NCBI GenBank assembly: GCA_038218895.1
Contig: JBBRJU010000001.1
Span: 1 to 37,707, forward strand
Origin: Burkholderiales bacterium
GTDB taxonomy: Bacteria > Pseudomonadota > Gammaproteobacteria > Burkholderiales > Burkholderiaceae_C
Direction of reading: 5' to 3'
DNA: 37,707 nucleotides
Part shown: positions 2,208 to 25,126 of the stretch, piece after piece
How positions within the stretch are numbered: position 1 is the stretch's first letter
How the letters are laid out: each line of letters starts with the position of its first letter
The notes under the pieces: generated by a model
The model's database searches: none
What the model was told of the DNA's origin: nothing
Seen by the model: only the letters and a program-made list of their open reading frames with translations
Made by a program: the position numbers and the translations under genes

Positions 2208-2233
2208 TTCACCGTCCGCCCACCGAGACCCCC

Positions 2234-6585: not shown

Positions 6586-6628
6586 GCAACAGACCTGACC
6601 ACCGAGCCCACCCGCGAAGGAGAAAGCA

Positions 6629-8665: not shown

Positions 8666-8680
8666 CGCAAGGAGTACACC

Positions 8681-9133
8681 ATGGCCGTCCTTCGTGATCG
8701 TCCTTACGTTCAATTCAACTTCCACGTCAACCTCGGCGACGGGGTGACCAACACGCCGCAGGCGGGGTTTCAAGAGGTCAGCGGCATCGGGATGGAAGTC
8801 ACCATCACCGAGTACCGCCCCGGCAACTACGCCTTCAACAACGTCATCAAAACGGCCGGCCTGAACAAGGCCACCGACGTGACCATGAAGCGCGGCGTGA
8901 TCGGCTCGCTCGATCTCTACAAATGGCTGGACGACGTGCGCAACGGTGCCAGCAGCGGCCTGCGCACCGTGACCGTCGAGCTGAAAAGCGAAGACCGTTC
9001 GCAGACCGTGCAGAGCTGGCGCCTGATCAACGCCCGCATCATGAAACACACCAGCGGGCCGTTCAACGCCAAAGGCACGGACGTGGCGATGGAAGAGCTC
9101 ACCTTGAGCTACGAGCGGCTCGAGATGGAGTAG
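8681..9133 (+). CDS. Tail tube protein 1 (T4 gp19-like, Afp1-like)
   Basis: AAGGAG RBS; GFQEVSGIGME, DVTMKRGV, GPFNAKGTDVAMEELTLSYE. Confidence 0.96.
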   Translation: MAVLRDRPYVQFNFHVNLGDGVTNTPQAGFQEVSGIGMEVTITEYRPGNYAFNNVIKTAGLNKATDVTMKRGVIGSLDLYKWLDDVRNGASSGLRTVTVELKSEDRSQTVQSWRLINARIMKHTSGPFNAKGTDVAMEELTLSYERLEME

Positions 9134-9137
9134 CGCG

Positions 9138-11603
9138 GTGGTCCAGGTGGGTGTCCAGATCGTCGATGACCCGTCGCCTGCGGGTGACGGCATGCCAGCG
9201 ATGGACGTGCCCGTGTTCGTCGGCTTTGCAGCCAAGGGGCCGTTGCAGCGGCCGGTGGCGTTGGAGGATCCGAGCCAGTTTGAAGCCGTCTTTGGCCGAC
9301 CCCTGGCGCTGGTGTTGCCGGCCATGGGCACCCAGCCACTGGTCGCCCATTTGCACGCTGCCGTGTTCGGATTTTTCGCCAACGGCGGGCGACGCTGTCA
9401 CGTGATCCGGGTGGCTGCGCGCGGCGCTGCCGACTGGGGCGGGGCCGGCGCCAGCAGCGCCCGTTTTGCGCTGCCGCAGGTGTATCTGGCGCTGCGGGGT
9501 GCCATGGCTGCGCAGCTGCCGGTGCGCCCACCCCATGACACCAGCGCGTGGCGTGTGGCCGACGCGCCGCTGCAGCTGCGTGCCGCCAGCCCGGGCAGCT
9601 GGGCCGACCGCCTGGCGCTGGCCGCCCGCAGCCGCAGCCAGGCCCTGCATGCGGACGACGCCGTGGCCGTGGGCGACCTGCTGCGTGCCAGCTTGCCCGG
9701 GCCGGTGCTTGGCAACCGCAGCGGCTGGCTGCGCACCGACCGCGCCGGGCGCCTGGCGGATGTGCTGGCCGCCAGCCGCCTGGCCGACTGGATCTGGCCC
9801 GCCGGCGGTGCCAGCTTGGTCACGGCCGGTGACTGGCTGGTCGAGCGCGTGCTGGTCGACCTGGCGCTGCGCGATGCCGGCCAGTTGATGCTGCGCCGTG
9901 ACGCGTGCAGGCTGAGCGCGGGCGTCGGCAACCTGCCTTGGTGGGCACCCGATGCAGATGCCATGTTTGATGCAGACCCCGGCGCCACCAACGCCTGGCC
10001 GCTGGCCGGCTCCCCCTGGGCCTTGAGCGCCCCAGGCTTTGATGCCAGCTCGCCCGACTGGCTGCTGCTGCCACTGGGCTTGGGTGACGCCTTCGACGAC
10101 TGGCAGCCTGCGCTGCTCGACGGACGCGACGCGCTCGCCCGCAACGGGCTGGACCGTTTCGACGCCAGCCTGTTCATCGACCCCGCGCTGCGTCCGGGCC
10201 TGCGTGGCCAGGCCCTGCGCGCCTGGGCCGACGACATCCGCTTTTTGGGCAGCGCACCGCGCCGTCTGCAGGGCCTGCACGGCGCGCTGGGCCGTGACGA
10301 CGCCTGCGCGCATGAAGCCAGCTGGGTGCTGTTGCCTGATGCCATCCACCCCGGCTGGGTGTTGACCCCGCCGTTGCCCGATTGCAACGGCACGGTGCAA
10401 GCCGTGGCCGATCCGCCGTGTGACTGCCCGCCGCGTCACTTCGATGGTTGCGCGCCGCCGCCGCCTCGTCCGCCTCGTCCGCCGCGCATTGATTTTTATA
10501 TGCTCAGCCCCGTGCAGCTGCCCGCCGACCGGCCGTGGCAACTGCGCTTGCACGCTGCGACCGAGCTGCCACCGACAGCGGCCATCCGGCTTGAGGTGCA
10601 GCTGGCCAGCCAAGCTGATTTTTCTGACGCTGCGGTGTTGGTCGATGTCCTGCCGCCCCTGGCCGTGTCCCTGAGCCGGCCGGCTGGCGTGTATTGCATG
10701 CGCGCCCGGGCGCACCGGCTGGGCCTGCAAAGCGAGTGGAGCGCCGTCACCGTGCTCGATGTGCGCGGCGTGGCCTGGCAGGCGCTGCCGCCGCAGCCAG
10801 CGGACGGCGTGTGCGCGCAGGTGCACGCCGCGCTGCTCGACCTGTGCGCGGCCAGCCGCGAGCATGTCGCCTTGCTCAGTGCGCCGCCCGATTGGCCGGC
10901 CAGCACCCTGGCCCAGCATGTGCGCATGCTGCGCGCGCATGCCGCAGCAAGCGACCGCGACGCGGTGGCCGCCAGCGCCAGCTTCGCTGCGCTGTTCCAC
11001 CCCGGCGTGTTGCAGCGCGACGGCGACGGCACCTTGCGCCTGCACCCACCCGAGGGCTTGCTGGCTGGCCTGATGGCCCGCCGCAGCCGCAGCCAAGGCG
11101 CCTGGAGCGCGCCCGGCCTTGACCCCCTGGCCGGCGCGCTGCGCACCGAAGGCGCATTGACCGATGTGGCGCAAATCGAATTGCTGGGTGCCAACCCGCT
11201 GGCGCTGCGCGGCGCTGGCGTGTGCGCAATGCGCGCCGCCACGCTCAGCGAAGACCCCGACTGGAGCGCTCTCGGCGTGCGCCGCCTGTTCATCCTGCTG
11301 CGCCGCCTGGCCCGCCGCGAGGGCGAACGCTTTGCCTTCGAACCCAACGATGCGGCGCTGCGCCGCAGCCTGGAGCGCAGCTTCGACGCATTGCTGCAGC
11401 GCCTGATGCAGCGCGGCGCGTTTCGCGGCGTGGATGCCCAGAGCAGTTATGTACTGCGCACGGCCTCTGGCGCGGCCGCTGCCGGTGAGATCGAGCGCGG
11501 CGAGTGCAGCCTGTTGATCCAGGTGGCGCCATCGCGGCCGTTGCGCTTTCTCACGCTGCACCTGCTGCGCGCCGGTGAACAACTGGTGCTCGAGGAACGC
11601 TGA
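9138..11603 (+). CDS. Divergent sheath protein 2 (Afp4-like sheath initiator) with inserted domains
   Basis: DVPVFVGFAAKGP...FFANGGRRCHVIRV N-terminus and LGVRRLFILLRR...FAFEPND...VAPSRPLRFL C-terminus. Confidence 0.88.
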   Translation: MVQVGVQIVDDPSPAGDGMPAMDVPVFVGFAAKGPLQRPVALEDPSQFEAVFGRPLALVLPAMGTQPLVAHLHAAVFGFFANGGRRCHVIRVAARGAADWGGAGASSARFALPQVYLALRGAMAAQLPVRPPHDTSAWRVADAPLQLRAASPGSWADRLALAARSRSQALHADDAVAVGDLLRASLPGPVLGNRSGWLRTDRAGRLADVLAASRLADWIWPAGGASLVTAGDWLVERVLVDLALRDAGQLMLRRDACRLSAGVGNLPWWAPDADAMFDADPGATNAWPLAGSPWALSAPGFDASSPDWLLLPLGLGDAFDDWQPALLDGRDALARNGLDRFDASLFIDPALRPGLRGQALRAWADDIRFLGSAPRRLQGLHGALGRDDACAHEASWVLLPDAIHPGWVLTPPLPDCNGTVQAVADPPCDCPPRHFDGCAPPPPRPPRPPRIDFYMLSPVQLPADRPWQLRLHAATELPPTAAIRLEVQLASQADFSDAAVLVDVLPPLAVSLSRPAGVYCMRARAHRLGLQSEWSAVTVLDVRGVAWQALPPQPADGVCAQVHAALLDLCAASREHVALLSAPPDWPASTLAQHVRMLRAHAAASDRDAVAASASFAALFHPGVLQRDGDGTLRLHPPEGLLAGLMARRSRSQGAWSAPGLDPLAGALRTEGALTDVAQIELLGANPLALRGAGVCAMRAATLSEDPDWSALGVRRLFILLRRLARREGERFAFEPNDAALRRSLERSFDALLQRLMQRGAFRGVDAQSSYVLRTASGAAAAGEIERGECSLLIQVAPSRPLRFLTLHLLRAGEQLVLEER

Positions 11604-12094
11604 TGGCGACTGCGCCTGCCAGCCCCAACAAAGAGCGCCAGGCCATGCAGCCCTTCAGCGCGCTGAATTTCATCGTCGAAATCCTGCCCGACGGCGACAG
11701 CAAACCCCTGGCTGGCGCGGCGTTTTCTGACTGCGAGGGGCTTGAAGTGACCCAGGAAGTCAAGACTCTGCGCGAAGGTGGCAACCCCAACCGCGTGCAC
11801 CGCCTGGCCGGTCCGGTCAGCTACGGCCAGCTCACGCTCAAACGCGGCATCACCCACGGGCTGGATTTGTGGACCTGGTTCGACCGCAGCCTCGCCAATC
11901 CCGCCTTGCGCGCCGGCATCACCGTCAGCGTGCTGCGCCACGACCACAGCGAATGGGGCCGCTTCACGCTCAGCCGCTGCATCCCGGTCAAGTTGAAGGG
12001 GCCGACGCTGAACGCGCGCGACGGCAATGTGGCCATCGAGGAAATCCAGGTCGCCTACGAAACCTTCCGCTGGCAGGATTATTCAAATGCCTGA
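11603..12094 (+). CDS. Tail tube protein 2 (gp19-like, Afp5-like)
   Basis: FSDCEGLEV, LREGGNPN, LTLKRGI, GPTLNARDGNVAIEEI; TGATG coupling (alternative start ATG 11645). Confidence 0.94.
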   Translation: MATAPASPNKERQAMQPFSALNFIVEILPDGDSKPLAGAAFSDCEGLEVTQEVKTLREGGNPNRVHRLAGPVSYGQLTLKRGITHGLDLWTWFDRSLANPALRAGITVSVLRHDHSEWGRFTLSRCIPVKLKGPTLNARDGNVAIEEIQVAYETFRWQDYSNA

Positions 12095-12998
12095 GCTGCA
12101 GATTCAACATGCGCGGCTGATCGAGCTGAAGGGCGACCTCAGCGATGTGCAGCCCAATGGCAAAACCCTCGCGGTGCAGTTCAACCCCGAGTCGCTCAAG
12201 CTCAGCTACGCCAACCAGATTCAGGCGCAGCCGAACGGGGGCTCAGGTGGCGGCGCCGGGCGCAACCAGAGCCAGGGCAGCGCGGCCCGGCAGTTCGTGG
12301 GCACCGGCAGCACCAAGCTGGCGGTGCAGTTGTGGTTTGACGTGAGTGCGGCCACCAGCGCGCCCTTCATCGTTGACGACGTGCGCCGCATCACCGCCCA
12401 GGTGCTGTACTTCATCAAGCCCAAGCCAGCGGCCGCCGGCAGCCGCGATGCAGCCCAGCGCACGCCGCCGGGGCTGCGCTTTTCGTGGGGCAACTTCCTA
12501 TTCGACGGCATCGTGGAGTCGGTCGAGGAAAGCGTTGAATTCTTCAGTGCCAAGGGTGAGGCGCTGCGCGCCAGCATGACGCTGAACATGGTGCAACAAG
12601 ACATCCTGGTGCCCGACTTTTCACAGCGTGGCAGTGGCGCCATGATGGGTGCCCGGCCGCTGTGGTCGGCCGGCGGTGGGCAGGCCTTGCAGGCGCTGCA
12701 AGACAGTGCCTACAACGGCGCCACGCCGTCTGGCGCAGCGCAAGGCAGCGGTGCAGGGGGTACCGGCGGCGGGGGCGGCGGGGGTGGCGGCGGCGGTGGC
12801 GGTTTGGCCGGTAGCGTTGACACGGGCAGCGCAGCCAGCCGCGGCGTGCCGGCGGGCACGCTGCGCGGTGGCCCGGCGTTTCAGTCCGGCGGCTGGCAGC
12901 GGGTCGCGCTCGCCAATGGTGTGGAGAACCCGCGCGCTGTGCCGCCGGGGCAGCTGATCGATTTGTCGGCCACCACACCGCGCATCGTCAGCGGGTGA
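12087..12998 (+). CDS. Afp7-like tube initiator (CIS tube domain plus C-terminal LysM-like domain)
   Basis: VQFNPESLKLSY, PPGLRFSWG...F.A.G..LRA, and LysM-like WQRVALANGVENPRAVPPGQLI. ATG 12087 overlaps the end of the tube-2 gene. Confidence 0.88.
   Translation: MPELQIQHARLIELKGDLSDVQPNGKTLAVQFNPESLKLSYANQIQAQPNGGSGGGAGRNQSQGSAARQFVGTGSTKLAVQLWFDVSAATSAPFIVDDVRRITAQVLYFIKPKPAAAGSRDAAQRTPPGLRFSWGNFLFDGIVESVEESVEFFSAKGEALRASMTLNMVQQDILVPDFSQRGSGAMMGARPLWSAGGGQALQALQDSAYNGATPSGAAQGSGAGGTGGGGGGGGGGGGGLAGSVDTGSAASRGVPAGTLRGGPAFQSGGWQRVALANGVENPRAVPPGQLIDLSATTPRIVSG
12765..12803 (+). repeat. Poly-glycine (GGN)13 tract
   Basis: ggcggcgggggcggcgggggtggcggcggcggtggcggt within the Afp7-like gene. Confidence 0.9.
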
Positions 12999-13011: not shown

Positions 13012-13185
13012 ATGCCCGTCCTCATCGGTGAGATCGAGATCAGCCAGGCGCCCGCGCCGAGCAGCCCGCCGCCTGCCGCCGCACAAGCCGCGCCGGCCCA
13101 GCCGCTGGATGCCGCCCAGCTTGCTGCCGCGCAGCGCGTGCTGCAGGCCCAGCGCGCGCTGGCCCTGCGTGTTTTCTCCCATTGA
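13012..13185 (+). CDS. Small 57-aa eCIS protein (Afp6-like spike-plug candidate)
   Basis: Translated by hand: MPVLIGEIEISQAPAPSSPPPAAAQAAPAQPLDAAQLAAAQRVLQAQRALALRVFSH*. It fills the gap between Afp7 and gpD and is below the ORF-track cutoff. Confidence 0.72.
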   Translation: MPVLIGEIEISQAPAPSSPPPAAAQAAPAQPLDAAQLAAAQRVLQAQRALALRVFSH

Positions 13186-13194
13186 GCCCTGACC

Positions 13195-14271
13195 ATGCCC
13201 AACGCCCCGATGCCCCTGGCCAGCGCCCGGCCCAGTCTGGTGGTCGAAGGCCAGCTCGCGTCTGACCTGGCCGCGTCGCTGCAGCACATGGAAGTGCGCG
13301 AGCGCAGCGACGGCATGGCGCAGGCCCAGCTCGGTTTCGGCAACTGGGGCCTGCGGGACGGCGCGCCCGGCTACACCCTGTTCGGCCGCGACCGGCTGGA
13401 GTTCGGCAAGAAGATCGAAGTCAAGCTCGGCGACAGCCTGCTGTTCGCCGGCCGGGTGATGGCGTTGCAGGCGCTCTACCCGGTGGGCGGTGCAGGCGAG
13501 GCACAGCTGGTGGTGCAGCTGGAAGACCGGTTGCAAGACCTGCGCATGCAGCGCCGCAGCCGCAGCTTTGCGCAAATGAGTCTGGCCGACATCGCCCGCC
13601 AGATCGCGTCTGACCACGGCCTGCAGGCTGCGGTACAACTCAGCGGCCCTACCCACGCGGTGCTGGCCCAGGTCAACCAGAGTGACCTGGCCTTTTTGCG
13701 TGAGCGCGCCCGCAGCGCCGAGGCCGACCTGTGGGTCGAGGGCGACAGCCTGCACCTGGCCCCGCGCACGCAGCGTGGGGCTGAGCCGATTGCGCTGGAC
13801 TACGGTGGCACGCTGCTGTCCTTCGAGGTGCGTGCCGACCTGGCGCTGCAGCGCACCGCGCTGTCGGTCAGCGGCTGGAGCGTGGCCGACAAGCGGGCGC
13901 TCAAGGAAACAGCGCAGCCCAGCCTGCTCGATGCTGAACTCGACGGCGGGCAGGGCGGCGCCACGCTGCTGCAACAGGCCTTCGGCGCGCGGCCTGATGT
14001 GGTCGCCCACCTGAACCCGGCCAATGCCGACGAGGCCCGCAGCTTTGCAGAAAGCTGGTTCAAGCAGATCGGCCGCCGCTTTGTCGTTGGCCACGGTGTG
14101 GCCCAGCCCCATGCCGGGCTGCGGCCTGGCGCCAATGTCAAGCTTGCTGGGCTCGGCCCGTTGTTCAACGGGCAGTACGCGGTCAGCGCGGTATGCCATC
14201 GCTTTGATCTGGCCGAGGGTTTGCGCAGCGACTTCACGGTCGAGCGCGCCGCCATCGGCAGGGGCAGCTGA
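13195..14271 (+). CDS. Phage late control D / gp27-like baseplate hub (N-terminal half of split VgrG/Afp8)
   Basis: EDRLQDLRMQRRSRSF, QVNQSDLAFLRERA, LRPGANVKLAGLGPLFNGQYAVSAVCHRF. Confidence 0.93.
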   Translation: MPNAPMPLASARPSLVVEGQLASDLAASLQHMEVRERSDGMAQAQLGFGNWGLRDGAPGYTLFGRDRLEFGKKIEVKLGDSLLFAGRVMALQALYPVGGAGEAQLVVQLEDRLQDLRMQRRSRSFAQMSLADIARQIASDHGLQAAVQLSGPTHAVLAQVNQSDLAFLRERARSAEADLWVEGDSLHLAPRTQRGAEPIALDYGGTLLSFEVRADLALQRTALSVSGWSVADKRALKETAQPSLLDAELDGGQGGATLLQQAFGARPDVVAHLNPANADEARSFAESWFKQIGRRFVVGHGVAQPHAGLRPGANVKLAGLGPLFNGQYAVSAVCHRFDLAEGLRSDFTVERAAIGRGS

Positions 14272-14987
14272 TGTCACTCTTCGATCTCACGCCCGCCGAG
14301 GCGCTCTACGCCGACCGCCACCCGCAGGGCTGGGGCGGCCGCTGGTACGGCTGCCATGTCGGCCAGGTGCTCGACTTGGCTGACCCCGACGGCGTCGGCC
14401 GCGTCAAGGTGGCGCTGCCCTGGTCGCCTGACGGCAACGGCCAGCGCTTGGAGGTGTGGGCGCGCATGACGACGCTGTTCGCCGGCAAGGACCGCGGCAG
14501 CTGGTTCATGCCCGAAGTCGATGACGAGGTGCTGCTGGTCTTTCAAGGGGGCGACCCGAGCCACGCCTTCATCGTCGGCGGCCTGTGGAACGGCACCGAC
14601 ACGCCGCCCACAGCGGCCAGCGCGCAGAACAACAAAAAGATCATCAAGAGCCGCAGCGGCGTGGTCATCACCATCGACGACCAACAAGGCACCGAGAGCA
14701 TCAAGCTCGAAACCCCCGGCGGCTGCGCGTTCACGCTCAAAGACGGCCCGGGCAGCGTCGACATCGAAGACAGCAACGGCAACAGCATCAAGCTCGAAAC
14801 CGCAGGCATCACCATCAACGCCTCGGCCAAGGTCACCATCAACGCCAGCCAAGTGGCAGTGTCGGCCGGCATGGTGACGGTGGATGCCGGCATGTCGCGC
14901 TTCTCGGGTGTGGTGCAAGCCGACACGGTGATCACCAACACCATCATTGCGGCCACCTACACGCCAGGCGCGGGGAACATCCTATGA
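14271..14987 (+). CDS. Baseplate assembly protein V / gp5 OB-fold spike (C-terminal half of split VgrG)
   Basis: DPDGVGRVKV.LPW, WAR, GSWFMPEVDDEVLLVFQGGDP, GGLWNG, then beta-helix repeats ending YTPGAGNIL; TGATG coupling. Confidence 0.94.
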   Translation: MSLFDLTPAEALYADRHPQGWGGRWYGCHVGQVLDLADPDGVGRVKVALPWSPDGNGQRLEVWARMTTLFAGKDRGSWFMPEVDDEVLLVFQGGDPSHAFIVGGLWNGTDTPPTAASAQNNKKIIKSRSGVVITIDDQQGTESIKLETPGGCAFTLKDGPGSVDIEDSNGNSIKLETAGITINASAKVTINASQVAVSAGMVTVDAGMSRFSGVVQADTVITNTIIAATYTPGAGNIL

Positions 14988-15108
14988 AGCGCATCGCACT
15001 GCCATCGGCGGCCGGGCCGGGCCGCGTCCAAGCCAGACCAGGCCCGCTCGGCGGGTCAGCTGGCGCACGCGCCGGTCGCGGTTCACAAACGCGTTCGAGG
15101 AGCTTCGT

Positions 15109-17139
15109 GTGAGGAACCCTGGTCATACCTTGCGCTGGGTCGGTGCTGAAGCCTTTGTCGCCACGCCCACCCGTGTCTCGCCCGCCCTGCTGCGCTTTGA
15201 CAGCGACGACTTCATGGACCGCATGCTGGCCCTGCTGGCGGACACGCCGCAGCAGCTGCCGCAGCTGGTGGCCAAGCCCGAGAGCTGGCAAGACCTGGCC
15301 CCACCCACGCCGGCCCCGCCTCCGCCACCACCCCAGCAGCTTGGCCCGCTCCCCGCGCCAGCACAGGCGCTTGCCCGGCGCCGCGCGTTGCTGGGCTTTC
15401 GGCGTGCGGATCAACAGGCGGAAAGCCCGCCGAGCGACAGCCGCACCGCGCTCACCGTGGCGCCGGCGGCGCTGCGCGCCAAGGCCCCCGTGCTCAAGCT
15501 GTTTCAGCCGGTTCACCAGCGCTTTTACCTGGCCGCTGCCCACCTGGTGTGCGAGTTGCCGGGCCTGCCCACGCGCAGCACCAGCGGCGGCGACAAAAGC
15601 GGCATGCTGCTGCGCCGCCTGGTGCGCGACCCGCGCACCCGTGCGCCCACTGAATGCGCCTTCGTCAAGACGCCTGGCCAGCCCGGCCGCTGGGTGCCAC
15701 TGGCGCACAACGACACGGTGCTGCCGGGCGAGGACTGGCTGCCGCTCTTTCCACTTGCCTACGCGCCACCGGCTGGCCCGGCGCGGCGCTTGCTGGCGGG
15801 GCTGATTCCGGTGGCCCGGCACGACGAGTACCGGTTCGCCAGCCTCGGTCTCGCCGCAGCGCCAGCCTGGAGTCGCGCCGACGACTTGAAGGCCCTAGCG
15901 CGCATGAAGGTCATTGCGCCCTGGCAGGGCTTGATCGAACGGGCTGTGCTGGCACGTGACGCCACCGGTGGTGCGCAAAGCAACACGCCCTGGGCCGACA
16001 ACGCCACTGCGCGCAGCAACGCCGCCCGGCTGGCCTACGCCAACGCCAACAACCAGCTCCAGGAAGCCTCCTGGCGTCTGCTGCAAGACATCAGCGAGTT
16101 CCTGGCCGCTGCGCTGCCGGCGGTGTTTGCCAAGCTGGCCAGCGGCACCCTCGAAGGCCAGGCCGGCAAGCTGCTGCTGCTGCTGCAACAAGCGGTGTGG
16201 GGTGACCCGCAGCGCGACGCCGTGCAGGACTGGCTGTCCGACGATGTCAAGGTGCTGGCCCGCTCCACCGCGCCCAATCTGCGCCTGGCGCTGGCGGCCA
16301 TGGGCGGCGCGGGGCTGGGCGTGTCGGATGCACTCGACAACACCGAGCAGCCCTTTCCCAGCGGCAGCGGCTGGCCGGCGTTTTCTTTTCCGATGGTGGT
16401 GGCAACACCGGGTCCCGCTGTCGCCGGGCCTTTCACCGCCTGGGCCGCGCTGCCGCTGCTAGATGCAGCCGACCCGCAGGATGTGGCCCAGCGCCAACTC
16501 GAAACCCTGTTCGCCGCCTTGGGTGAAGCCATCGTCGAAGCCGTGACCCAAGGCCGCGCTGGCACCGGCATGGCCCAGGCCAGCCATGCCGCACGCCTGG
16601 CGGCCGAGCTGGAGGCCACGCTCAAGGCCGATACGGGCGCGCCGCGTTTCGTGCTGCGCTTTGTGCACCAGCGCTGTGACTGCGGGCCGCTGCACCCGCC
16701 GGTGCTGTCGGCGCCCAGCGAGCTGTTCGAGCTTGCCGGCTTCTTCGATACCGACGCGCCGCTGCGCCCGATCCGCATCGCGCTGCCGTTCGACACCTCG
16801 CCTGGCGGCCTGCGCAAGTTCGGCAAGAACAGCGCCTTCATCATGAGTGACCTGCTGTGCGGCCAGATGAAGCGGGTGCGCCGCCTGGGCTTTGGCGACC
16901 TGGTGCTGAGCGTGCTGCCCTGGCCGTTTCACAAAGACCTGGACGTGCGAGCGACAGCGCCTTGCAGCACAAGCCCGGGCAACACCTTCGGCACGATCTG
17001 CACGCTGTCGATTCCGATCATCACCATCGTGGCCTTCATCTTGCTGATCGTCATCGCCACGCTGCTCGACCTGATTTTTCGCTGGCTGCCGTTCCTGATG
17101 GCCTGCTTCCCGGTGCCGGGCTTGAAGGGGAAGAAATGA
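15109..17139 (+). CDS. Hypothetical 676-aa eCIS protein with long hydrophobic, putative transmembrane C-terminus
   Basis: GAGGAG (15097-15102) precedes GTG 15109. C-terminus ICTLSIPIITIVAFILLIVIATLLDLIFRWLPFLMACFPVPGLKGKK; ATGA coupling to gp25. Confidence 0.82.
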   Translation: MRNPGHTLRWVGAEAFVATPTRVSPALLRFDSDDFMDRMLALLADTPQQLPQLVAKPESWQDLAPPTPAPPPPPPQQLGPLPAPAQALARRRALLGFRRADQQAESPPSDSRTALTVAPAALRAKAPVLKLFQPVHQRFYLAAAHLVCELPGLPTRSTSGGDKSGMLLRRLVRDPRTRAPTECAFVKTPGQPGRWVPLAHNDTVLPGEDWLPLFPLAYAPPAGPARRLLAGLIPVARHDEYRFASLGLAAAPAWSRADDLKALARMKVIAPWQGLIERAVLARDATGGAQSNTPWADNATARSNAARLAYANANNQLQEASWRLLQDISEFLAAALPAVFAKLASGTLEGQAGKLLLLLQQAVWGDPQRDAVQDWLSDDVKVLARSTAPNLRLALAAMGGAGLGVSDALDNTEQPFPSGSGWPAFSFPMVVATPGPAVAGPFTAWAALPLLDAADPQDVAQRQLETLFAALGEAIVEAVTQGRAGTGMAQASHAARLAAELEATLKADTGAPRFVLRFVHQRCDCGPLHPPVLSAPSELFELAGFFDTDAPLRPIRIALPFDTSPGGLRKFGKNSAFIMSDLLCGQMKRVRRLGFGDLVLSVLPWPFHKDLDVRATAPCSTSPGNTFGTICTLSIPIITIVAFILLIVIATLLDLIFRWLPFLMACFPVPGLKGKK

Positions 17140-17537
17140 ACGACGAAGCCTCCCTCTATGGCCGTGGTGTCGCCTTCCCGCCCCGGCTCACACCCGAAGG
17201 CAGGCTGGCCTGGTCCAGCGGCGAGGCGAACGTGCGCGAGTCGATCCGCATCCTGCTGCTCACCGCCCAAGGTGAACGCCTGCGCCGGCCCGATTACGGC
17301 GCCGGGCTGGAGCGTTTTCTGTTCGAGCCCAACAACCCCGGCACCTGGCGTGCGATTGAAGAAACCATCCGCCGCCAGCTGGCGCGGTGGGAGCCACGGG
17401 TCAACGTCGAGTCGGTCACGGTGACCGCCGACCCCGACAACGCCGAAGCCGCCACCGCGACGCTGGCCTTCACGCTGGTGGCCACCGGCCAGACGGGCCG
17501 CACGACCTTGAGCATCCCCGTCACCGGCAGGAACTGA
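17136..17537 (+). CDS. GPW/gp25-family baseplate protein (Afp9-like)
   Basis: YGRGVAFPP, ESIRILLLTAQGERLRRPDYGAGL, LARWEPRVNV; ATG 17136. Confidence 0.95.
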   Translation: MNDEASLYGRGVAFPPRLTPEGRLAWSSGEANVRESIRILLLTAQGERLRRPDYGAGLERFLFEPNNPGTWRAIEETIRRQLARWEPRVNVESVTVTADPDNAEAATATLAFTLVATGQTGRTTLSIPVTGRN

Positions 17538-17538
17538 C

Positions 17539-19755
17539 ATGCCCATCCAACTCCCCGCCATCGACGACCGCGACTACGCCAGCCTGGTGCGCGACACCCT
17601 CGCGCTGGCATCGGTGCACACGCCCGAGTGGACGCACACCGGCCCGAGCGACCCGGGTGTCACCTTGGTGGAGCTGTTTGCGTTCATGGCCGAAAGCCTG
17701 CTCTACCGCGCCAACCTGATCCCGGAGCGCAACCGGCTCAAGTTCTTGCAGCTGCTGGGTATCGGCTTGCGGCCGGCGCAGCCGGCGCGGGGCATCGTGC
17801 AGTTCAGCGTGGAGCCGGGCGCGCGGCAGAACGTCACCCTGGCCTCGGGCCTGCCGCTGCTGGCCGGTGCGGTGCCGTTCGTGAACGACCAGGGACTGGA
17901 CGTGCCGCCGGTGGCCGGCGTGGCCATGTTCAAGCGCCTGGCCGGCAGCGCTGACCCGGCCCTGCTCGACTACTACCGCCAGCTGTATGAAGCCACTGGG
18001 CGCGACCTGACGGTGTTCGATGGCGCGTTGGCGCCGGTGCTGTACGACACCGTCGCCCAGCCCGACCTGGCCGGGCCGATCGACGTCGGTGCCGACACCG
18101 TCGACGGCGCGTTGTGGATTGCCGTGCTCGCCGCCGCCAAGCCGACCGAAGCGGACAAGCTGCAGGCCCGCGAACAACTCGCTGGCCGCACGCTCAGCAT
18201 CGGCCTGGTCCCTGCACCGCCCGAGGCCAGCGCGCGGCTGGTGCCCGGGCGCAGCGCCAGCCCGCCAGCGCGCCTGAGCGTGTGGTGCCCGGCCACGACG
18301 GTGGGCAGCACGACCGCGGCCGCGCCCGACTACCGCCGGCTGGATGCGGTGGCACCCAACGGCTTCCCTGAACGGGCCGGCATCCTGCAGGTCACCCTGC
18401 CGGCCAATGCGGGCGAGATCGCCAGCTGGGCCGAGGCCGAGCCGCTGGAAGCCGGCGTGGGCGAACTGCCGCCGCAGCTCACCGACGAGGCCCTGGCCGC
18501 GCGGCTGCTCACCTGGCTGCGGGTCGATGGCCTGGCCACTGCCGGCGTCAAGCTCGCGTGGGCCGGCATCCACTGCGCAGTGGTCACCCAGCGCAGCCGC
18601 GTCGCCCGTGAGCTGCTGGCGCCCGGTGACGGCCAGCCCGAGCAGCGCCGGCGCTTGAGCCGCAGCCAGGTGTTGACCGATTCAATGCAGCTCAGCATCG
18701 CCGGCGCACCCTGGCTGCTGACCGATGCGCTGGAAGCCGCACCGCCCGAGGGCACGGCTGGCGCACGGGTGTTTGCGCTCGATGCCGAAGCGGGCGAGCT
18801 GCGCTTTGGCGACGGCGCGCGCGGCGCCCGTCCGCCTGCAGGCGCTGAAATCGCAGCCGGCTACGACAACTCGATCGGCGCAGCCGGCAATGTGGCGGCC
18901 GGCGCGATCAAACTCGGGCCCACGCTGCCGCCGGGTTTGAAGGTCAGCAACCCGCTGCCCGCGCAAGGAGGCATCGACGCAGAGTCCGCAGCTGACGGCG
19001 AAAAGCGCATTCCGCTGGTGCTGCGCCACCGCGACCGCGCGGTCAGCGCCGACGACTTCGACGCCATCATTCGAGAAACCCCTGGCGCCGATGTCGGTCG
19101 GGTGGAGGTGCTGCCTGCCTGGCACCCCGAGCTGTCGCCCGGCTTGCCCGGCGACCAGCCTGGCGTGGTCACCGCCATGCTGATTCCGCGCGTCGATGCC
19201 CGCCGGCCCGACAACCCCGTGCCCGGCGCCGACTTCATCAACGCGGTGTGCGAGCACCTTGCGCCGCGCCGCCTGGTCACCTGCGAGGTGCTGCTGCGCG
19301 GGCCTGTCTATACAAGCGTGTGGGTCAGCGTGGGCGTGGAGCTGCACGCCGGCCAGAGCGTGGCCACCGTGCGCGAGCGGGTGCGTGCCGCCCTGCGTGC
19401 CCACTTGTCGCCGCTGCCCATGGCGGGCGGTACGCCTGGCATGCCGGGGCTGGAGCATGGCTGGCCACTGTTCCGTGCCGTGTCCGCGCTGGAGCTGGCG
19501 ACGGTGGCGGCGCGGGTGGAGGGCGTGCTCGGCGTGACCGGCCTGCTGCTGGGCGACGCCAGTGGTGCGCAGCGCGACCGCGTGCCGATGCAAGGCCTGC
19601 AGCTGCCGCTGATCGCCGGCCTGTCGGTGGGCGTGGGCGACGCGGTGCCGCTGGGTGATCTGATCGGTCGTCCGGCCGGGTCAGACGGCAGCGCGATGGC
19701 AGCGGCAGCGGCAGCCCGCCGCCTGCCGGTGCCCAAGGTACCCGAGAACTGCTGA
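17539..19755 (+). CDS. Baseplate J-like wedge protein (Afp11-like)
   Basis: LPAIDDRDY, PEWT...SDPGVTLVELFA, LRFGDG, AAGNV, RDRAVSADDF. Confidence 0.94.
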   Translation: MPIQLPAIDDRDYASLVRDTLALASVHTPEWTHTGPSDPGVTLVELFAFMAESLLYRANLIPERNRLKFLQLLGIGLRPAQPARGIVQFSVEPGARQNVTLASGLPLLAGAVPFVNDQGLDVPPVAGVAMFKRLAGSADPALLDYYRQLYEATGRDLTVFDGALAPVLYDTVAQPDLAGPIDVGADTVDGALWIAVLAAAKPTEADKLQAREQLAGRTLSIGLVPAPPEASARLVPGRSASPPARLSVWCPATTVGSTTAAAPDYRRLDAVAPNGFPERAGILQVTLPANAGEIASWAEAEPLEAGVGELPPQLTDEALAARLLTWLRVDGLATAGVKLAWAGIHCAVVTQRSRVARELLAPGDGQPEQRRRLSRSQVLTDSMQLSIAGAPWLLTDALEAAPPEGTAGARVFALDAEAGELRFGDGARGARPPAGAEIAAGYDNSIGAAGNVAAGAIKLGPTLPPGLKVSNPLPAQGGIDAESAADGEKRIPLVLRHRDRAVSADDFDAIIRETPGADVGRVEVLPAWHPELSPGLPGDQPGVVTAMLIPRVDARRPDNPVPGADFINAVCEHLAPRRLVTCEVLLRGPVYTSVWVSVGVELHAGQSVATVRERVRAALRAHLSPLPMAGGTPGMPGLEHGWPLFRAVSALELATVAARVEGVLGVTGLLLGDASGAQRDRVPMQGLQLPLIAGLSVGVGDAVPLGDLIGRPAGSDGSAMAAAAAARRLPVPKVPENC

Positions 19756-19756
19756 C

Positions 19757-22618
19757 ATGGACAGCAACGGCAGCCGCTACCACGCGCTGGTCACCCGCGA
19801 GGACTGGCTCGCGCAGGTGGTGCCACCGCAGCCCGGCGCCGAGCCCAGGCTCGCCTGGGACAGCAGGGCCGGCCTGCTGGCGCTGCGCCCGCTGCTGTTC
19901 GAGTTCCGCGCGCCGCGCGCGGTCGTGTTGGACGAACCCGGCCCACGCGCTGGCGGCGTGTTCGATGCCTTCGGCAATCTCTTCGCCTTGACGCCGGCGG
20001 GCGACGCGATCCGCATTCGCTCCAGCGGCAGTGCTGCCACGTCGACCTTCTGGCCGCTGCCGGTGCTGGACGGTGCCGTGGTCGAGGGCGGGGCGCGCAC
20101 GCCCTTGCCGGTGGCCGGCGGCGCCTTTGCGCCGCTGTCGCCCGACCCCGCCAGCCGCGCGCCGCTGCTTGACAGGCTCACCGTCACCACCGGCCACTAC
20201 CTGGTGGCGGCCAGCGTCGCGGCCGGTGGTCTGCTGATTTTCGACCTGCACGGTGGCGCCCCGCCACTGCGCCAGCCCTGGCCCGGCATGCCCGCGCCCG
20301 AGGCCCTGATCGCCCTGGCCGATGGTGGCCTGGGCCTGCTCAGCGCGGGCCGGCTGCACCGCCTTGCACCTGACCTGCTGCCTTGTGTCGAGGTGCCATC
20401 CACACCTGCTGCATTCGCCCCCCAGGGTGCCGTGCCTGCAACCGCCGCGCCGCCCGACACCGCGCCGGTCTGGGTCATCGACCTGCGGCCCGCACTCGGT
20501 GCTGGTGCCACCGTCACCGCGTGCCTGCGGGTGGCCGACGACAGGCTGGTCGTGCTGGGCAGCCGTGCCGGCGAATCGACGCAGCGCCTGGGCCTGATCG
20601 CGCTCGATGGCACGCCGTTGGCCGTGCAAGGGCCCACTGGCCAGCCGCTCGGCGCGCTGAACACGCTGATCGCGGCGATGGTGGTCACGCCCGAGGGCGC
20701 CACGCGCGCGCCCGACGTGCTGCTGTCGGCCCGCAGCCTCGTCATCGAAACCCGCGCCAAACCGGCCGCCGATGAACCCGACTTCGCGCTGGTGGTGCTG
20801 GCCGCCGGCGGCGACCAGGCCTTTCGCCTGGCGGGCCGCTGGGTCAACGGCGCGCTGCAGCTCAGCGTGCAGCGCGACTACCTGCCGCTGCGCCGCTACC
20901 AGGGCGGCGGCTTCGCCAGCCTGGGCGCTGGCGCGGTGCTGCATGCCTACCCGTCAGCGCGGGTTTTTTACGCCAGCGAAGGCCGCTGGGTGCCGCTGCT
21001 GGCGCTGCCGCAGCCGCGTTGCGAGCGCGAGGCGGTGCTCGAGGCGCCCGCCTGGGACAGCGGCCTGCCGGGCTGCACCTGGCACCGCCTGGTGCTGGAG
21101 GCCAGCCGCCCACCCGGCGGCATGATCACCGTGCAAAGCCGCTGCGCTGACGACGCCGCGCTGCTGGCCAAACTGCCTTGGCGCGACGAGCCCCCACTGC
21201 TGGCCCACCCGGCCGGCAGCGAGTTGCCCTGGCGCAGCCGCGAGGCCACCAGTGCCTGCGCCGATCTGCAAAGCCTCACCGCGTTGCTGCAAGACGCGCG
21301 CGGCCGTTGGCTGCAGCTGCGCCTGCTGCTCAGCGGCGACGGCCAGCAAAGCCCCGGCCTGGCGGCGCTGCGCGTCTGGTACCCGCGCTTCTCGTACCTG
21401 AAGGAATACCTGCCGGCGGCGTACCGGGCCGATGCTGCCAGCGCCTCGTTGCTGGACCGCATGCTCGCGCTGTTCGAGGGCGAGTTCACCCGTTGGGAAG
21501 ACCGCATCGCCGCCGCGCAGCTGCTGCTCGACGCCCGCAGCGCCCCGGCCGACACCCTGGCCTGGCTGGCCCAGTGGGTGGCGCTGGCCTTCGATCCCTC
21601 CACCGGCCCGCTGCGCCGGCGCCTGCTGCTGCGCCACGCGATGAGCGGCCACGCCCGGCGTGGCACCGTGCCCGGCCTGCTTCTGGCCGCCACCCTGGCC
21701 TGGGAGACGGCTGACGCCGACGCGGCCGAAGTCGAGTGCTGGATGCGCAGCCCCGAGCGCCTGCCCGAGCGGCGCCACGGACTGCGGCTGCAAGAACTAT
21801 TCGGCCTGACGCTGCCTTTGCCGCCTGGCGCGTGGGGGCTGGCGCTGGGTGCTGCCGATCTGCTGGCGCGGCTGGGCGGCGACACATCGCTGCTGGCCAC
21901 CGATGCCCGCCTGCCGGTGCTGCAACAGGCGCTGGGCTTCGTGCCACGCGGCGCGCAGGAAGAAGAAAGCCGCCGCGCCGCCTGGCGCCTGCCCGCGCTG
22001 CCCGACGACGAGCCCATCGATTCGGCTGAGCGCGAGCGCTATGCCGCGTACCTGGCCGCAAGCCAGGTCTGCGCACCGCTGCGCCAGCGCTGGCAAGATT
22101 TTTTGAGCCGCCGCTGGCGCCAGGTCAGCGCGCTCAACGCCGCCTGGGGTACACGTTGGCGTGGTTTTGAGCAAGTGCCCAGCGCCACCCGCTTGCCGGC
22201 CAGCCGCGTGGCCCTGGCCGACTGGCATGTGTTCGAGTCGCAGGTGCTGCGCGGTCTGGGCAATGCGCACCGCTTTCGCATCGTGCTGCCCAGCCCGCAG
22301 ACCAACGGCGGCCCGCTCGATGTGGACGAGATCAGCCGCCGCCGCGCAGCGGTGTGGCGCGCGATCGAGCGTGACCGACCGGCCCACACGGTGGCCGAGT
22401 TGCGCTTTGGTTTCGAGCTGTTCCGCGTTGGCGAGGCGCGCTTGGGGCTCGACACCCGGCTTGAACACGGCCTGACCCGCCGGCCCGAGCTGGCCGCGTT
22501 GGGCAACGCACTTTCCCTCTGGTCGCCGATGGTGCTGGGCCAGAACGACCTGGGCGGTGCGCAACTCGCCAGCGCCCGCCCGCTGCCACCTGCCGACCGC
22601 ATCGGTCTGGACCGATGA
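19757..22618 (+). CDS. Phage tail protein I-like (P2 gpI) baseplate wedge (Afp12-like) with large N-terminal extension
   Basis: YLPAAYR...LLDRMLALFE, APADTLAWLAQWV, RRGTVPGL, AHRFRIV, RPAHT, FRVGEARLGLDT. Confidence 0.88.
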   Translation: MDSNGSRYHALVTREDWLAQVVPPQPGAEPRLAWDSRAGLLALRPLLFEFRAPRAVVLDEPGPRAGGVFDAFGNLFALTPAGDAIRIRSSGSAATSTFWPLPVLDGAVVEGGARTPLPVAGGAFAPLSPDPASRAPLLDRLTVTTGHYLVAASVAAGGLLIFDLHGGAPPLRQPWPGMPAPEALIALADGGLGLLSAGRLHRLAPDLLPCVEVPSTPAAFAPQGAVPATAAPPDTAPVWVIDLRPALGAGATVTACLRVADDRLVVLGSRAGESTQRLGLIALDGTPLAVQGPTGQPLGALNTLIAAMVVTPEGATRAPDVLLSARSLVIETRAKPAADEPDFALVVLAAGGDQAFRLAGRWVNGALQLSVQRDYLPLRRYQGGGFASLGAGAVLHAYPSARVFYASEGRWVPLLALPQPRCEREAVLEAPAWDSGLPGCTWHRLVLEASRPPGGMITVQSRCADDAALLAKLPWRDEPPLLAHPAGSELPWRSREATSACADLQSLTALLQDARGRWLQLRLLLSGDGQQSPGLAALRVWYPRFSYLKEYLPAAYRADAASASLLDRMLALFEGEFTRWEDRIAAAQLLLDARSAPADTLAWLAQWVALAFDPSTGPLRRRLLLRHAMSGHARRGTVPGLLLAATLAWETADADAAEVECWMRSPERLPERRHGLRLQELFGLTLPLPPGAWGLALGAADLLARLGGDTSLLATDARLPVLQQALGFVPRGAQEEESRRAAWRLPALPDDEPIDSAERERYAAYLAASQVCAPLRQRWQDFLSRRWRQVSALNAAWGTRWRGFEQVPSATRLPASRVALADWHVFESQVLRGLGNAHRFRIVLPSPQTNGGPLDVDEISRRRAAVWRAIERDRPAHTVAELRFGFELFRVGEARLGLDTRLEHGLTRRPELAALGNALSLWSPMVLGQNDLGGAQLASARPLPPADRIGLDR

Positions 22619-22639: not shown

Positions 22640-25126
22640 ATGCGTTGTTGCACAGGTTCCAACTTCAGTCCCGCGCCGGGCGCCGCGCTCGACCTGAGCC
22701 AGCGGGTCAACTTCAGCTTCGGCATGGTGCTGGGCGTGGACGACTTCCGCCAGGAGCACGCCTACCTGGCTGCCCGGGACGAGCGCGCGTTGCGCGAAAC
22801 CATCGGCTACGGCGTGCTCAGCGGCCTGGCGGTGTCGGCCGGCAAGGCGGAGGAGGCAGCCGACGGCGACCAGGTTCGCGTCGCCCCTGGGCTGGCCTTG
22901 CTGCCCGACGGGCACCTGGTGGGCATCGCCACCGAGCAATGCGCCAACATCAGCGCCTGGCGGGCGGCGGAAATCGCCAACGACGCGGCGGCCGCCACCC
23001 GGCCCACGGTCTACGTGATGCTGCGTTATGCCGAGATCAGCAGCACGCCGGTGCCCATTCCAGGCGAGCCCTGCCGGGACGAAAGCGCGCTGACGGCTGA
23101 CGCCCGCATCAGCGACAGCTTCAGCCTCGACTTTTCCTGGGTTGCGCCGAGCCAGGCCGAAGACAACGCGGTGCGCTCAGTGGTGGCCTGGCTTCGCGGC
23201 ATCAAGGTGCGCAATGTGCTGCCCAGTGCCGTGCCGCTAAAGCAGTTCCAGCACGATGTCGAGGCCGGCTTGCGCGCCGCGATCGCGGCCAACTGGCCCG
23301 CTGACGTCTCGCCCCCGCTGGCCGCCGCGCCAGCCCTGGCCGAGCCCAGCAGCCTGGGCGTGCCGCCGGTTGAACTGGTGATTCCCCGGACCGCTTACGC
23401 CGCCTACCTGAACGCCGCGTTCGAGGTGTGGGTGCGGCAGCTGCGTGCCGAGGTGATGGCCCACCACGGCCCGGTGCCAGCGGCCGAAGCCCTGGCCGAG
23501 CGTGGCCTGCTGCTGGCCGCCGTGGACGTGCTGTCGGTCGGCGGCGTGCCCCCCGCTGCCGAGCTGCCGCGCGCCCGTCTGCTGGGCCGCCCGCAGCTGT
23601 TGCACCTGCGCCTGCTGCAGGAATGGCTGCTGCGCGACGGCAGCCAGGATGCGCCGCGCGAGGCGCACTACCTGCTCGGCAAGGGTGACCCTGCGCTCGA
23701 CCACGCGCAAGACCTGCTGGCCGACTTCAGCGCCCACAACCACGCGATCAGCCGGGTGGACACCGTGCCCGACACCACCGACGGCGGCAACGGCAACAAG
23801 GCGGTGCTGCGTCCAGCCGTCAAGTGGCCTGGTGGCGAACCCGCTGCGGGCGGCCCTGACTACTATGGCCCGGCGATGAGCCAGCCGATTCCTGTCAGCG
23901 ACGGCGGCACGGCCCAGGCCGTCGCGCCGGCGCCGGGGCAACTGCTGGTCGGCGCCCTGACAGTGGGGCGCAGGCCTGCACGCTTCGTGCTGGGCAACCT
24001 GGTCGGCGCGGCCTTGCCGAAGCCGGAGGGCCCGTCGCCCAACATCCTGGTCGATGTGGCGAGCGGCGCGCCCGATATTCGCCTCGACACGGTGCAAGAC
24101 ATCGGCCCCGGCGCCAGCCCGGGGTTTGCCGGCCTGGCGGTGAACGGCCTGCTCAGCGCCGACAGCCTGGCGGTCAGCGCCGACGCGGCGGTGCAAGGCC
24201 AGTTGTCTGTTGCCGGTGCGCTGGTGTTGGGCGAGCCGCTTTCCAGCGTGCTGGCCAGCAACGACAAGGGCGTGGTGGTTGCCGCAGCGGGCTGGGACGG
24301 TGACGAGGCCGCGCTCGGCGCCGAATCGCCTCCGCCCTACGTGTACAAGCCGGGCCAGAAGGCGCCGGTGCGCATCGAAGACGGCGGCACCGGCTTGCGC
24401 GCCCGGCCCCGGCAACTGCAGGTGCTGGTCGGTGTGGAGCCCGGAGAGCGGCGCGGGCGGGCGGGTGGCGCCTACGTGCTGGCCGACCTGGTGGCGGGCG
24501 AAAACATCAAGCTCGACCTGAGCCAGCGGCGCGTTGGTGCGTTGGAGTCGATGGGGTGGCAGCTCAGCATCACGGCGACCGGCGTCGGAGGTGGCCCTGC
24601 CACGCAGGTGTTGGCCGCCGGCAACTCGGACAGCCCGCCGTCGCTCACCGCAGTGACCACTGCCAACCAGGTGTCGATCGACACGGTGCAGCCGCTGCAC
24701 CCGGCCGCCGGCCCGCAGTTCGACAGCCTGCGGTTGGTGAACCCGGGCCGCACCAGCGCTGATGCGATGCTGGGCTGGCACAAGGAAACCGGCGAGTTGG
24801 TGTTGACCGAGGCGCCGCCGCCCGTGGCCACTGACGTGGGCAAATGGCCGATCCGGCTCGCCAAGGCGGCGCCGGAACTGGTGGTGAGCGACAAGGACCA
24901 GGTCATCGTCGTCCTGGTCAGTGGCGAGATCGCCATGCCCGACATCCGCAGGGATCGCATCGGCGACGGCCGGGTGATCGTGCTCAAGGCCGTCAAGGGC
25001 GTCGACGTTTTGCGGGTGCTCAATGTGGACGAACAACCCGACGGCATCCGCCTGGAGCCCGGCAACGCGCTGACCCTGATCGCTTCGCGCGAGATGCGGG
25101 CCTGGCTGGTGATCGGCAGGAGCTGA
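22640..25126 (+). CDS. Putative tail fibre (Afp13-like)
   Basis: AGGAG RBS; N-terminal attachment-type domain RVNFSFGMVLGVDDFRQEHAY...VAPGLALLPDG; two internal DGGT/DTVQ repeats; beta-rich tip domain. Confidence 0.75.
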   Translation: MRCCTGSNFSPAPGAALDLSQRVNFSFGMVLGVDDFRQEHAYLAARDERALRETIGYGVLSGLAVSAGKAEEAADGDQVRVAPGLALLPDGHLVGIATEQCANISAWRAAEIANDAAAATRPTVYVMLRYAEISSTPVPIPGEPCRDESALTADARISDSFSLDFSWVAPSQAEDNAVRSVVAWLRGIKVRNVLPSAVPLKQFQHDVEAGLRAAIAANWPADVSPPLAAAPALAEPSSLGVPPVELVIPRTAYAAYLNAAFEVWVRQLRAEVMAHHGPVPAAEALAERGLLLAAVDVLSVGGVPPAAELPRARLLGRPQLLHLRLLQEWLLRDGSQDAPREAHYLLGKGDPALDHAQDLLADFSAHNHAISRVDTVPDTTDGGNGNKAVLRPAVKWPGGEPAAGGPDYYGPAMSQPIPVSDGGTAQAVAPAPGQLLVGALTVGRRPARFVLGNLVGAALPKPEGPSPNILVDVASGAPDIRLDTVQDIGPGASPGFAGLAVNGLLSADSLAVSADAAVQGQLSVAGALVLGEPLSSVLASNDKGVVVAAAGWDGDEAALGAESPPPYVYKPGQKAPVRIEDGGTGLRARPRQLQVLVGVEPGERRGRAGGAYVLADLVAGENIKLDLSQRRVGALESMGWQLSITATGVGGGPATQVLAAGNSDSPPSLTAVTTANQVSIDTVQPLHPAAGPQFDSLRLVNPGRTSADAMLGWHKETGELVLTEAPPPVATDVGKWPIRLAKAAPELVVSDKDQVIVVLVSGEIAMPDIRRDRIGDGRVIVLKAVKGVDVLRVLNVDEQPDGIRLEPGNALTLIASREMRAWLVIGRS

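Follow-up and report, generated by a model that had tools for sequence, protein, structure and literature searches.

Among the extracellular contractile injection systems (eCIS), subtype IIb is the only one reported to lack afp10, the PAAR gene, and a PAAR-less subtype is thus already in print (Chen et al. 2019, PMC6899500). The accessible portion of that study describes conserved genes without a known domain in the subtypes of lineage II, states that their role needs experiments, asks whether those of IIb make up for the missing PAAR, and lists Myxococcus xanthus DK1622 and Streptomyces clavuligerus as IIb; for none of the subtype genes does it report a function, a membrane segment or a partner. 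In the literature that we searched (subscription papers and bioRxiv supplements lay outside the search), we found no description of the function of gene X, our subject here, or of the structure of a IIb system. Gene X lies between the spike and gp25 genes of a complete contractile injection system (CIS) operon on a contig of a Burkholderiales bacterium (GenBank assembly GCA_038218895.1, JBBRJU010000001.1, positions 1 to 37,707; this whole stretch of 37,707 nucleotides [nt] is called the window), and it offers a concrete candidate, with a predicted binding site and named residues, for the question asked in PMC6899500. We read X as a spike-borne protein whose self-shielded hydrophobic hairpin would be inserted into the membrane of the target cell, rather than as a tie to its own cell, and we give this reading about an even chance of being right. 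X thereby poses a three-way question, between the target membrane, the producer membrane and a buried cap.

The locus fits eCIS subtype IIb by gene content and genus overlap. The spike gene is split into a hub open reading frame (ORF) with the gp27 part (Phage_GPD, 358 amino acids [aa]) and a gpV ORF with the gp5 part (Phage_base_V, 238 aa), afp10 is absent, there is a single afp11 (one Baseplate_J), afp12 and afp13 are divergent (matches to CIS12 and CIS13 fall below the cut-off), and conserved domain-less genes are present, all of which the accessible portion of PMC6899500 describes for IIb. For afp6, a 57-aa ORF at 13012-13185 fits in size and place only and has no family match. The genera given there as IIb, Lysobacter and Mitsuaria (Table S3) and Gemmatimonas (first supplement), compare with Lysobacter, Roseateles and Gemmatimonadaceae among the X loci. 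X is probably one of the domain-less IIb genes. The spike region and the parts of X are arranged as follows.

13195..14271, + strand: gp27-like hub (Phage_GPD), 358 aa, by family match
14271..14987, + strand: gpV, gp5-like spike (PF04717, Phage_base_V), 238 aa, by family match
14823-14963, + strand: gpV distal beta-helix, residues 185-231, the predicted X-binding face (complex prediction)
14988..15108, no strand: 121-nt GC-rich insertion from gpV stop to X start (locus comparison)
15109..17139, + strand: gene X, 676 aa, core gene of a PAAR-less CIS subtype, with no match in Pfam, NCBIfam or PHROG
15109..15834, + strand: X residues 1-242, most of a predicted Ig-like beta-sandwich (AlphaFold2, VIA-align, complex prediction)
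15835..16638, + strand: X residues 243-510, helical insert of variable length (12 aa in 8 homologues and 156-328 aa in 46)
16639..16749, + strand: X residues 511-547, strands that complete the predicted sandwich, with invariant C525 (and, elsewhere, invariant C148) (AlphaFold2, alignment)
16750..16995, + strand: X residues 548-629, conserved linker of low monomer confidence, candidate shield (AlphaFold2, covariation with the hydrophobic stretch)
16996..17112, + strand: X residues 630-668, hydrophobic stretch flanked by C631 (16999-17001) and C666 (17104-17106), likely a hairpin (hydropathy, covariation)
17113..17136, + strand: X residues 669-676, basic tail (translation)
17136..17537, + strand: gp25 wedge protein (PF04965), by family match, its start overlapping the X stop

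The X ORF opens with GTG behind a GAGGAG-type ribosome site. A sequence-only reading of this DNA had described a 676-aa protein between spike and gp25, ending in about 40 mostly hydrophobic residues with a basic tail and having no signal peptide, and each of these points was borne out. In a Kyte-Doolittle (KD) hydropathy scan, on which the membrane-segment call rests rather than on DeepTMHMM or Phobius, the 39 residues 630-668 form the single transmembrane-grade stretch of the protein; the best 19-residue mean is 3.08, at residues 635-653, and because every other window stays at or below 1.6, X lacks the core of a signal peptide. The stretch contains 23 uninterrupted apolar residues with an aromatic belt and a basic tail, and it looks like a membrane segment in every homologue. 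It is not a chance feature, because the top hydrophobic window (at least 1.8) falls within the last 70 residues in all 120 listed homologues (121 records, with the query counted twice) and nowhere is the family better conserved than in columns 628-670 (the top-residue frequency averages 0.65 there versus 0.31 overall, in 54 sequences). In 45 of 54 homologues, the flank that follows the helix is the more basic of the two. Across 80 loci (the best 80 of 353 matching GTDB stretches, on which all GTDB synteny counts below are based), X alone among 16 gene families is transmembrane grade (KD of at least 2.2), so if the structural operon makes integral membrane contact at all, it would be through X. 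The five cysteine motifs that the same reading had placed beside the hydrophobic segment all exist, spread over residues 523-666 rather than clustered next to the helix.

The membrane role proposed in that reading kept its footing in so far as X is the only transmembrane-grade protein of the structural operon, and lost it as regards a classical single-pass tail anchor. Among 325 representatives, C631 and C666 were both kept in 312, both lost in 12 and found singly in 1, and the double losses fell in 8 separate clades of a subsampled FastTree tree (support values not considered). The pair ranked fourth overall in a mean-field covariation analysis of 516 sequences and was the top pair of 9,226 C-terminal pairs in all four covariation settings. 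Because these paired cysteines would lie on opposite sides in a single pass, residues 630-668 are likely a closed hairpin whose ends meet, held by either a disulfide or a shared metal site at C631-C666; disulfide-linked tails are on record (PMC10811340, in its accessible portion). Furthermore, 8 of 54 homologues, exactly the 8 without the helical insert, run 98 to 126 aa past the stretch, and a model of one of them (pTM 0.81; pLDDT 88 to 91 at the far C terminus) suggests that the chain returns to the soluble domain after it. Couplings of the stretch to residues 557-590 hint at self-shielding, and the pair C584-C619 had no covariation support.

In the AlphaFold2 monomer, residues 1-550 are confident (mean pLDDT, 82) and the C-terminal 125 residues are mostly of low confidence. 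Residues 5-240 and 513-547 build a predicted beta-sandwich with a helical insert, and this insert (residues 243-510) is the least conserved long region of X. The top structural match by VIA-align was the Ig-like domain of BtaeB, a type VI secretion system (T6SS) effector (PMC13699834, in its accessible portion) seen in the Bacteroides fragilis VgrG-cargo structure 9JG8 (Z 6.7, rmsd 3.4, 130 residues aligned). The likeness extends to the setting, a cargo on a spike homologous to gpV (E 2e-28 for the VgrG of 9JG8); the difference is that identity is 7% and that the Z score is tied with unrelated Ig-like folds. Foldseek gave no match to X at E ≤ 0.001 against the PDB and viral structures, and VIA-align on a compact homologue returned a generic coiled-coil hairpin only. 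As for known pore folds, residues 548-676 are of low confidence and were barely covered by the fold searches.

Complex prediction places this sandwich on the spike. Three copies of gpV 131-238 with full-length X, the complex whose modeling the sequence-only reading had proposed, scored 0.71, 0.72 and 0.69, versus 0.00, 0.24 and 0.00 for the controls, with contact agreement between runs of at least 63% and partner pLDDT of at least 62. Of 157 solved pairs, 116 reach the mark for the complex score, as do 2 of 215 mismatched ones; these counts hold only roughly here (3+1 chains, own alignments). X residues 33-40, 133-141, 211-217, 225-240 and 545 contact gpV 185-231 of all three chains, on the side face below the tail, and successive gpV contacts lie about 7 residues apart on alternating chains, as expected for one face of a triple beta-helix. 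Among the residues of the X patch are F214, M36 and L141. The gpV tail, residues 232-238, is outside the confident contacts of this model, which has one X copy. Moreover, the 27 X interface positions are conserved above random sets from the sandwich region (0.55 versus 0.41, P = 0.001). By its confident contacts, the X sandwich is thus predicted to clamp the side face of the distal spike rather than its apex, contacts of other residues being uncertain; the "PAAR slot" claimed for X from sequence holds as gene order and does not hold as the predicted site.

If the spike contact were an artifact of modeling, X could instead be an adaptor of the baseplate or wedge, bound to gp25 or baseplate J and anchored in the producer or the target membrane, which we consider highly improbable. 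The X stop overlaps the gp25 start, the paired X-gpV covariation was blank, and the gpV trimer was the only partner modeled with X. Against such an adaptor, all three runs of the X-gpV complex passed while controls of either kind stayed low, the predicted patch is conserved, and X shows both start coupling to gpV and co-occurrence with the gpV tail motif.

The target-membrane reading joins these pieces in the following order. The genes for gpV and X are encoded together; X mostly starts no more than 20 nt from the gpV stop and stands in place of any PAAR gene. Its sandwich is predicted to bind one face of the triple beta-helix made by three gpV chains, and up to three X could sit on one spike, given the three-fold symmetry. 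Residues 631-666 would form a hairpin closed by C631-C666, as a disulfide after release or through a shared metal, and judging from covariation it would be partly covered by residues 557-590; with that cover, a separate chaperone would therefore be unneeded. Fibers would then bind the target, the sheath would contract, the spike would take X across the envelope, and the hairpins would enter the target membrane. There they might help a PAAR-less spike to open the bilayer, give tube cargo a way through, or act as an effector that damages the membrane; the data separate none of these three. Of the two options left by the sequence-only reading, a membrane-inserting protein carried by the spike is the better one.

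There are precedents for parts of this. The P2 spike is delivered into the host periplasm (PMC12407873), and T6SS spike effectors with transmembrane domains (TMDs) are known (PMC7773334), both in the accessible portions of these papers. In the latter, prePAAR effectors carry spike-borne transmembrane segments that must be kept out of the membrane of the producer and are presumed to enter that of the target, which is the likeness to X; their TMDs are N-terminal, joined to PAAR, Eag-dependent and toxin-leading, whereas X has a C-terminal hairpin, no PAAR, and no known toxin domain or chaperone identified, and is a core gene rather than a variable payload. The prePAAR/Eag arrangement, an N-terminal TMD and PAAR with an adjacent Eag gene, was not found in X, whose neighbors are gpV and gp25.

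Several points weigh against the target-membrane reading. Its support is computational prediction and sequence statistics, and these do not single out which membrane the hairpin enters; since no Eag-like chaperone was identified at the X locus, they leave room for insertion into the producer membrane. The complex job was unlike the calibration (3+1 chains, own alignments), and its controls did not include a second CIS spike, although near relatives of a true partner pass frequently; conserved patches also attract predicted interfaces, and the likeness to 9JG8, a structure that the predictor may have learned, could have helped the score. Paired X-gpV covariation placed 0 interface pairs in the top 100 (2.25 expected; 128 pairs, about 91 effective). 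The complex model is silent on the position of residues 548-676, and the monomer model has 630-666 as an unbroken helix with no hairpin. The shielding contacts are moderately stable across the covariation settings (576-630 ranks 3, 3, 4 and 502; 587-643 ranks 42, 93, 34 and 274), and the 638-663 coupling is unstable.

The same hairpin could be a re-entrant anchor in the cytoplasmic membrane of the producer, with both ends inside, so that X would dock the spike tip for outward firing or for Streptomyces-like self-lysis. A CIS tethered to a membrane through a monotopic hairpin would, if real, be a new route to a membrane-docked CIS, through the spike; we judge this explanation of X rather unlikely. 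It can call on the transmembrane grade of X alone among the 16 families, the basic tail of a protein without a signal peptide, the chaperone gene that was not found, and the presence of X in monoderms (a Rhodococcus plasmid). A hairpin with both ends inside also agrees with the positive-inside rule, which we dropped as an argument because a hairpin or a basic-tailed anchor fits either membrane.

Membrane-engaged CISs do exist, with Cis13 in Anabaena (PMC8894136), CisA in Streptomyces (PMC12237407) and SalCis13/19 in Salmonella (10.1101/2025.06.01.657177), and like X these are CIS-encoded proteins with a hydrophobic segment. According to the accessible portions of these reports, they differ from X in being fiber-position or separate membrane proteins that act on the baseplate; X had no match to them or to PDB sequences. 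The predicted partner of X is the moving spike, whereas the published anchors work through baseplate or fiber proteins. The two fiber-like genes of the window have a Cis13-like N terminus and no membrane segment, unlike Cis13 of Anabaena, which counts against a tether and fits an extracellular target; likewise, no envelope-crossing partner was seen among the conserved genes. The paired cysteines, if a disulfide, suit an oxidizing place, and in our judgement the stretch is conserved beyond what a lipid anchor needs. Known anchors hold a static baseplate, and a tether borne by the projectile would have no counter-force during firing.

No PAAR gene was seen beside X at the loci examined. The gpV C-terminal tail YTPGAGN is invariant, and a DNA pattern for it found 144 loci, 24 viral and 120 metagenomic (a sample of about 2,200). 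X lay downstream of the tail motif in 97 of the 144 with the first profile and in 114 with a broader profile built partly from these loci, and gp25 followed the spike directly in none. The distance from the gpV tail to the opening of the X frame is no more than 100 nt in 112 of 114 loci, which leaves no room in the slot for a PAAR gene. All 46 well-covered tail-motif loci with a tube-like gene upstream had X. Thirty loci were without an X match, 16 of them too short and 14 with at least 600 nt of DNA; the latter had no downstream CIS genes and were of several kinds: orphan pairs of hub and spike, truncated spikes, one long VgrG, further proteins with this beta-helix at their end, and contigs too short upstream to judge. 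None of 54 X members matched the PAAR Pfam families. PF05488 was not found in the host's own genome (63% complete), and in five genomes at least 91% complete it occurred in 1 and PF13665 in 2, always on contigs other than that of X. These results agree with the earlier expectation that X homologues are always CIS-linked and mutually exclusive with PAAR: X sat in a CIS at every locus examined, and no PAAR gene adjoined it. The gpV tail motif had no match in the literature searched.

A strict exclusion of this kind is also what would be seen if X were a mechanical substitute for PAAR. On this account, which we think unlikely, X would sit on the spike flank and its three hydrophobic stretches would pack together or on the gpV tail, forming a buried cone that never meets lipid. 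The very high conservation of the X stretch (0.65) and of the gpV tail (0.97) and some covariation with residues 557-590 speak for it, and three-fold symmetry allows it, a single X copy having been modeled. The 23 apolar residues, aromatic belt and basic tail nevertheless resemble a membrane segment in every homologue, gpV 232-238 is not among the confident contacts, and the gpV-type tail ends unrelated proteins with no X nearby, suggesting that the tail caps itself. PAAR-type spike tips are about 100 aa long. X shares with the PAAR, Afp10 and gp5.4 tips its gene position between spike and gp25 and a predicted ride on the spike; it differs in its 676 aa, the missing PAAR match, the predicted flank rather than apex site, and the hydrophobic stretch.

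The distal beta-helix, the predicted X-binding face, may be a mobile trimerization or docking module. Outside CIS operons, eight proteins carry the distal beta-helix and tail of the IIb spike (L118, L137, L166, L169, L160, L119, L142, L173); two have signal-peptide-like N termini, one has a coiled-coil-like region, one has 160 aa of low complexity, one is a long T6SS-type VgrG, and there are spikes without an OB fold. A bolder form of the target-membrane reading, which we hold tentatively and regard as somewhat doubtful, is that in IIb the PAAR tip has given way to three proteins set in a ring on the spike flank; their cysteine-locked hairpins, driven into the target membrane, would assemble a built-in entry pore, and the distal beta-helix would be a mobile docking tag reused by orphan proteins. 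If true, this would be a chaperone-free, core-encoded membrane-penetration module, undescribed for tails, T6SS and eCIS in the literature that we found.

X is widespread and lacks annotation, and it belongs to the core genes of a CIS subtype known from computational work. A phmmer search gave 519 relatives and a profile search gave 1,649 clusters at 50% identity (E ≤ 0.001), which with the 353 GTDB stretches make up a large family that probably includes tractable hosts listed as IIb in the accessible portion of PMC6899500. By title, the best 80 GTDB loci come from Proteobacteria, Acidobacteria, Gemmatimonadota, Verrucomicrobia, Chloroflexota, Bacteroidetes and others. X is carried in many phyla, diderm and monoderm; in an even draw of 400 genomes from the host's class, 9 had X matches, the host's own included. 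None of the relatives listed in two of the searches had an informative name. Pfam gave no family for X and none common to 54 members, PHROGs and NCBIfam gave no match, the best E value in a PDB sequence search was 0.43, with no solved relative, and the ESM Atlas returned unnamed clusters only, with nothing usable for residues 510-676.

The gene order was the same throughout. In the GTDB loci, gp25 was downstream of X in 80 of 80 and gpV was upstream in 77, the remaining 3 contigs ending inside X, and in 63 of those 77 the start of X lay no more than 20 nt from the gpV stop. The order gpV-X-gp25 was also found in 7 of 7 further genomes from the class-wide draw (one unpublished genome left out) and in 8 of 8 IMG/VR contigs, and no X outside a CIS was seen among these 80, 7 and 8 loci. 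A phage origin was rejected on the CIS gene order in all 8 IMG/VR contigs (head genes not searched). No longer fused forms of X were found, which is weak evidence; an apparent X-gp25 fusion (P0296) was rejected because its record has one member only and contains garbled stretches that look like frameshifts.

A distant subclass of X occurs in Actinobacteria. This compact, largely actinobacterial group (L100, L103, L129, L136, L147, L165, L175, L177, L233) does not have the helical insert of residues 243-510; a different loop bears a coiled-coil hairpin of 70 aa, and the proteins carry additional cysteines and are extended at the C terminus. One member is plasmid-borne, in an X-type CIS of Rhodococcus opacus (NZ_CP095404.2, L233:10764-16556) that has two DUF4157 genes and a HEAT-repeat gene between sheath and tube.

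At some loci, the gaps on either side of X hold insertions. Repeat-like insertions of 450-850 nt, with frames open on both strands and a MITE/REP-type look, lie in the X-gp25 gap of six loci (L001, L002, L006, L010, L013, L018) and in the gpV-X gap of two (L181, L183). A chaperone or immunity gene in the 600-750 nt X-gp25 gaps of six Pelomonas, Roseateles and Burkholderiales loci was rejected, these being repeat insertions with ORFs on both strands, as judged by eye. A GC-rich insertion of about 120 nt also lies between gpV and X in four related loci (L001, L002, L006, L018), flanked there by a duplicated gpV end with an overlapping start codon, which is degenerate in the window; a partial copy is on contig C157 of the host genome (G000).

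The operon as a whole comprises a cap, two sheaths, two tubes, CIS_tube, hub, spike, X, gp25, baseplate J, a Cis12-like protein, two Cis13-like fibers, an AAA ATPase and a likely cargo. Its remaining features are as follows.

5168..12998, + strand: cap (Pvc16_N), 268-aa protein of unknown family, two sheaths, two tubes and CIS_tube protein, by family matches
13012..13185, + strand: 57-aa ORF ahead of the hub, a candidate Afp6-like plug for which only its place and size speak, with no family match
17539..19755, + strand: baseplate J (Afp11-like), by family match
19757..22618, + strand: Cis12/Afp12-like baseplate protein (NF053768 below cut-off, TIGR02242 above)
22640..25126, + strand: fiber-like protein with Cis13-like N terminus and no transmembrane-grade stretch
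25129..26448, + strand: second fiber-like protein, with weak Cis13-like N terminus and no transmembrane-grade stretch
28268..30172, + strand: AAA ATPase (Afp15-like), by family match
30175..33498, + strand: likely cargo after the ATPase, 1,107 aa, with a long helical region and one hydrophobic window (KD 2.25)

The likely cargo has a weak nuclease-like C terminus (PF13930, E 0.1, below cut-off), and its layout makes it, not X, the better local match to the tape-measure-related effectors Tme and Sle1 (PMC11126660; 10.1101/2025.11.06.686954). In the accessible portions of these reports, Tme and Sle1 resemble X as CIS proteins with membrane-reaching hydrophobic helices and differ as long cargo with DUF4157 links, in a Streptomyces davawensis system with a PAAR-like tip; the system of PMC11126660, having such a tip, is of a different subtype. 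From what is accessible of the sources, the system of PMC12998442 is IId, and that of 10.1101/2024.12.19.629468 was rejected as the X-type system.

Two operon genes without a family match, at 5779-6585 (268 aa, with homologues in 31 of the 80 loci) and 26445-28271 (608 aa), are candidates for other IIb-specific genes. The host genome encodes a second, different CIS (G000:C27:4259-10738) with a sheath, a tube, a fused VgrG without the tail motif, and gp25; its spike-gp25 gap holds an ORF of about 60 aa that matches neither X nor PAAR. Upstream of the X-type operon, at 714-4872, lie two wax ester synthase/DGAT genes and an alpha/beta hydrolase gene, an ordinary set.

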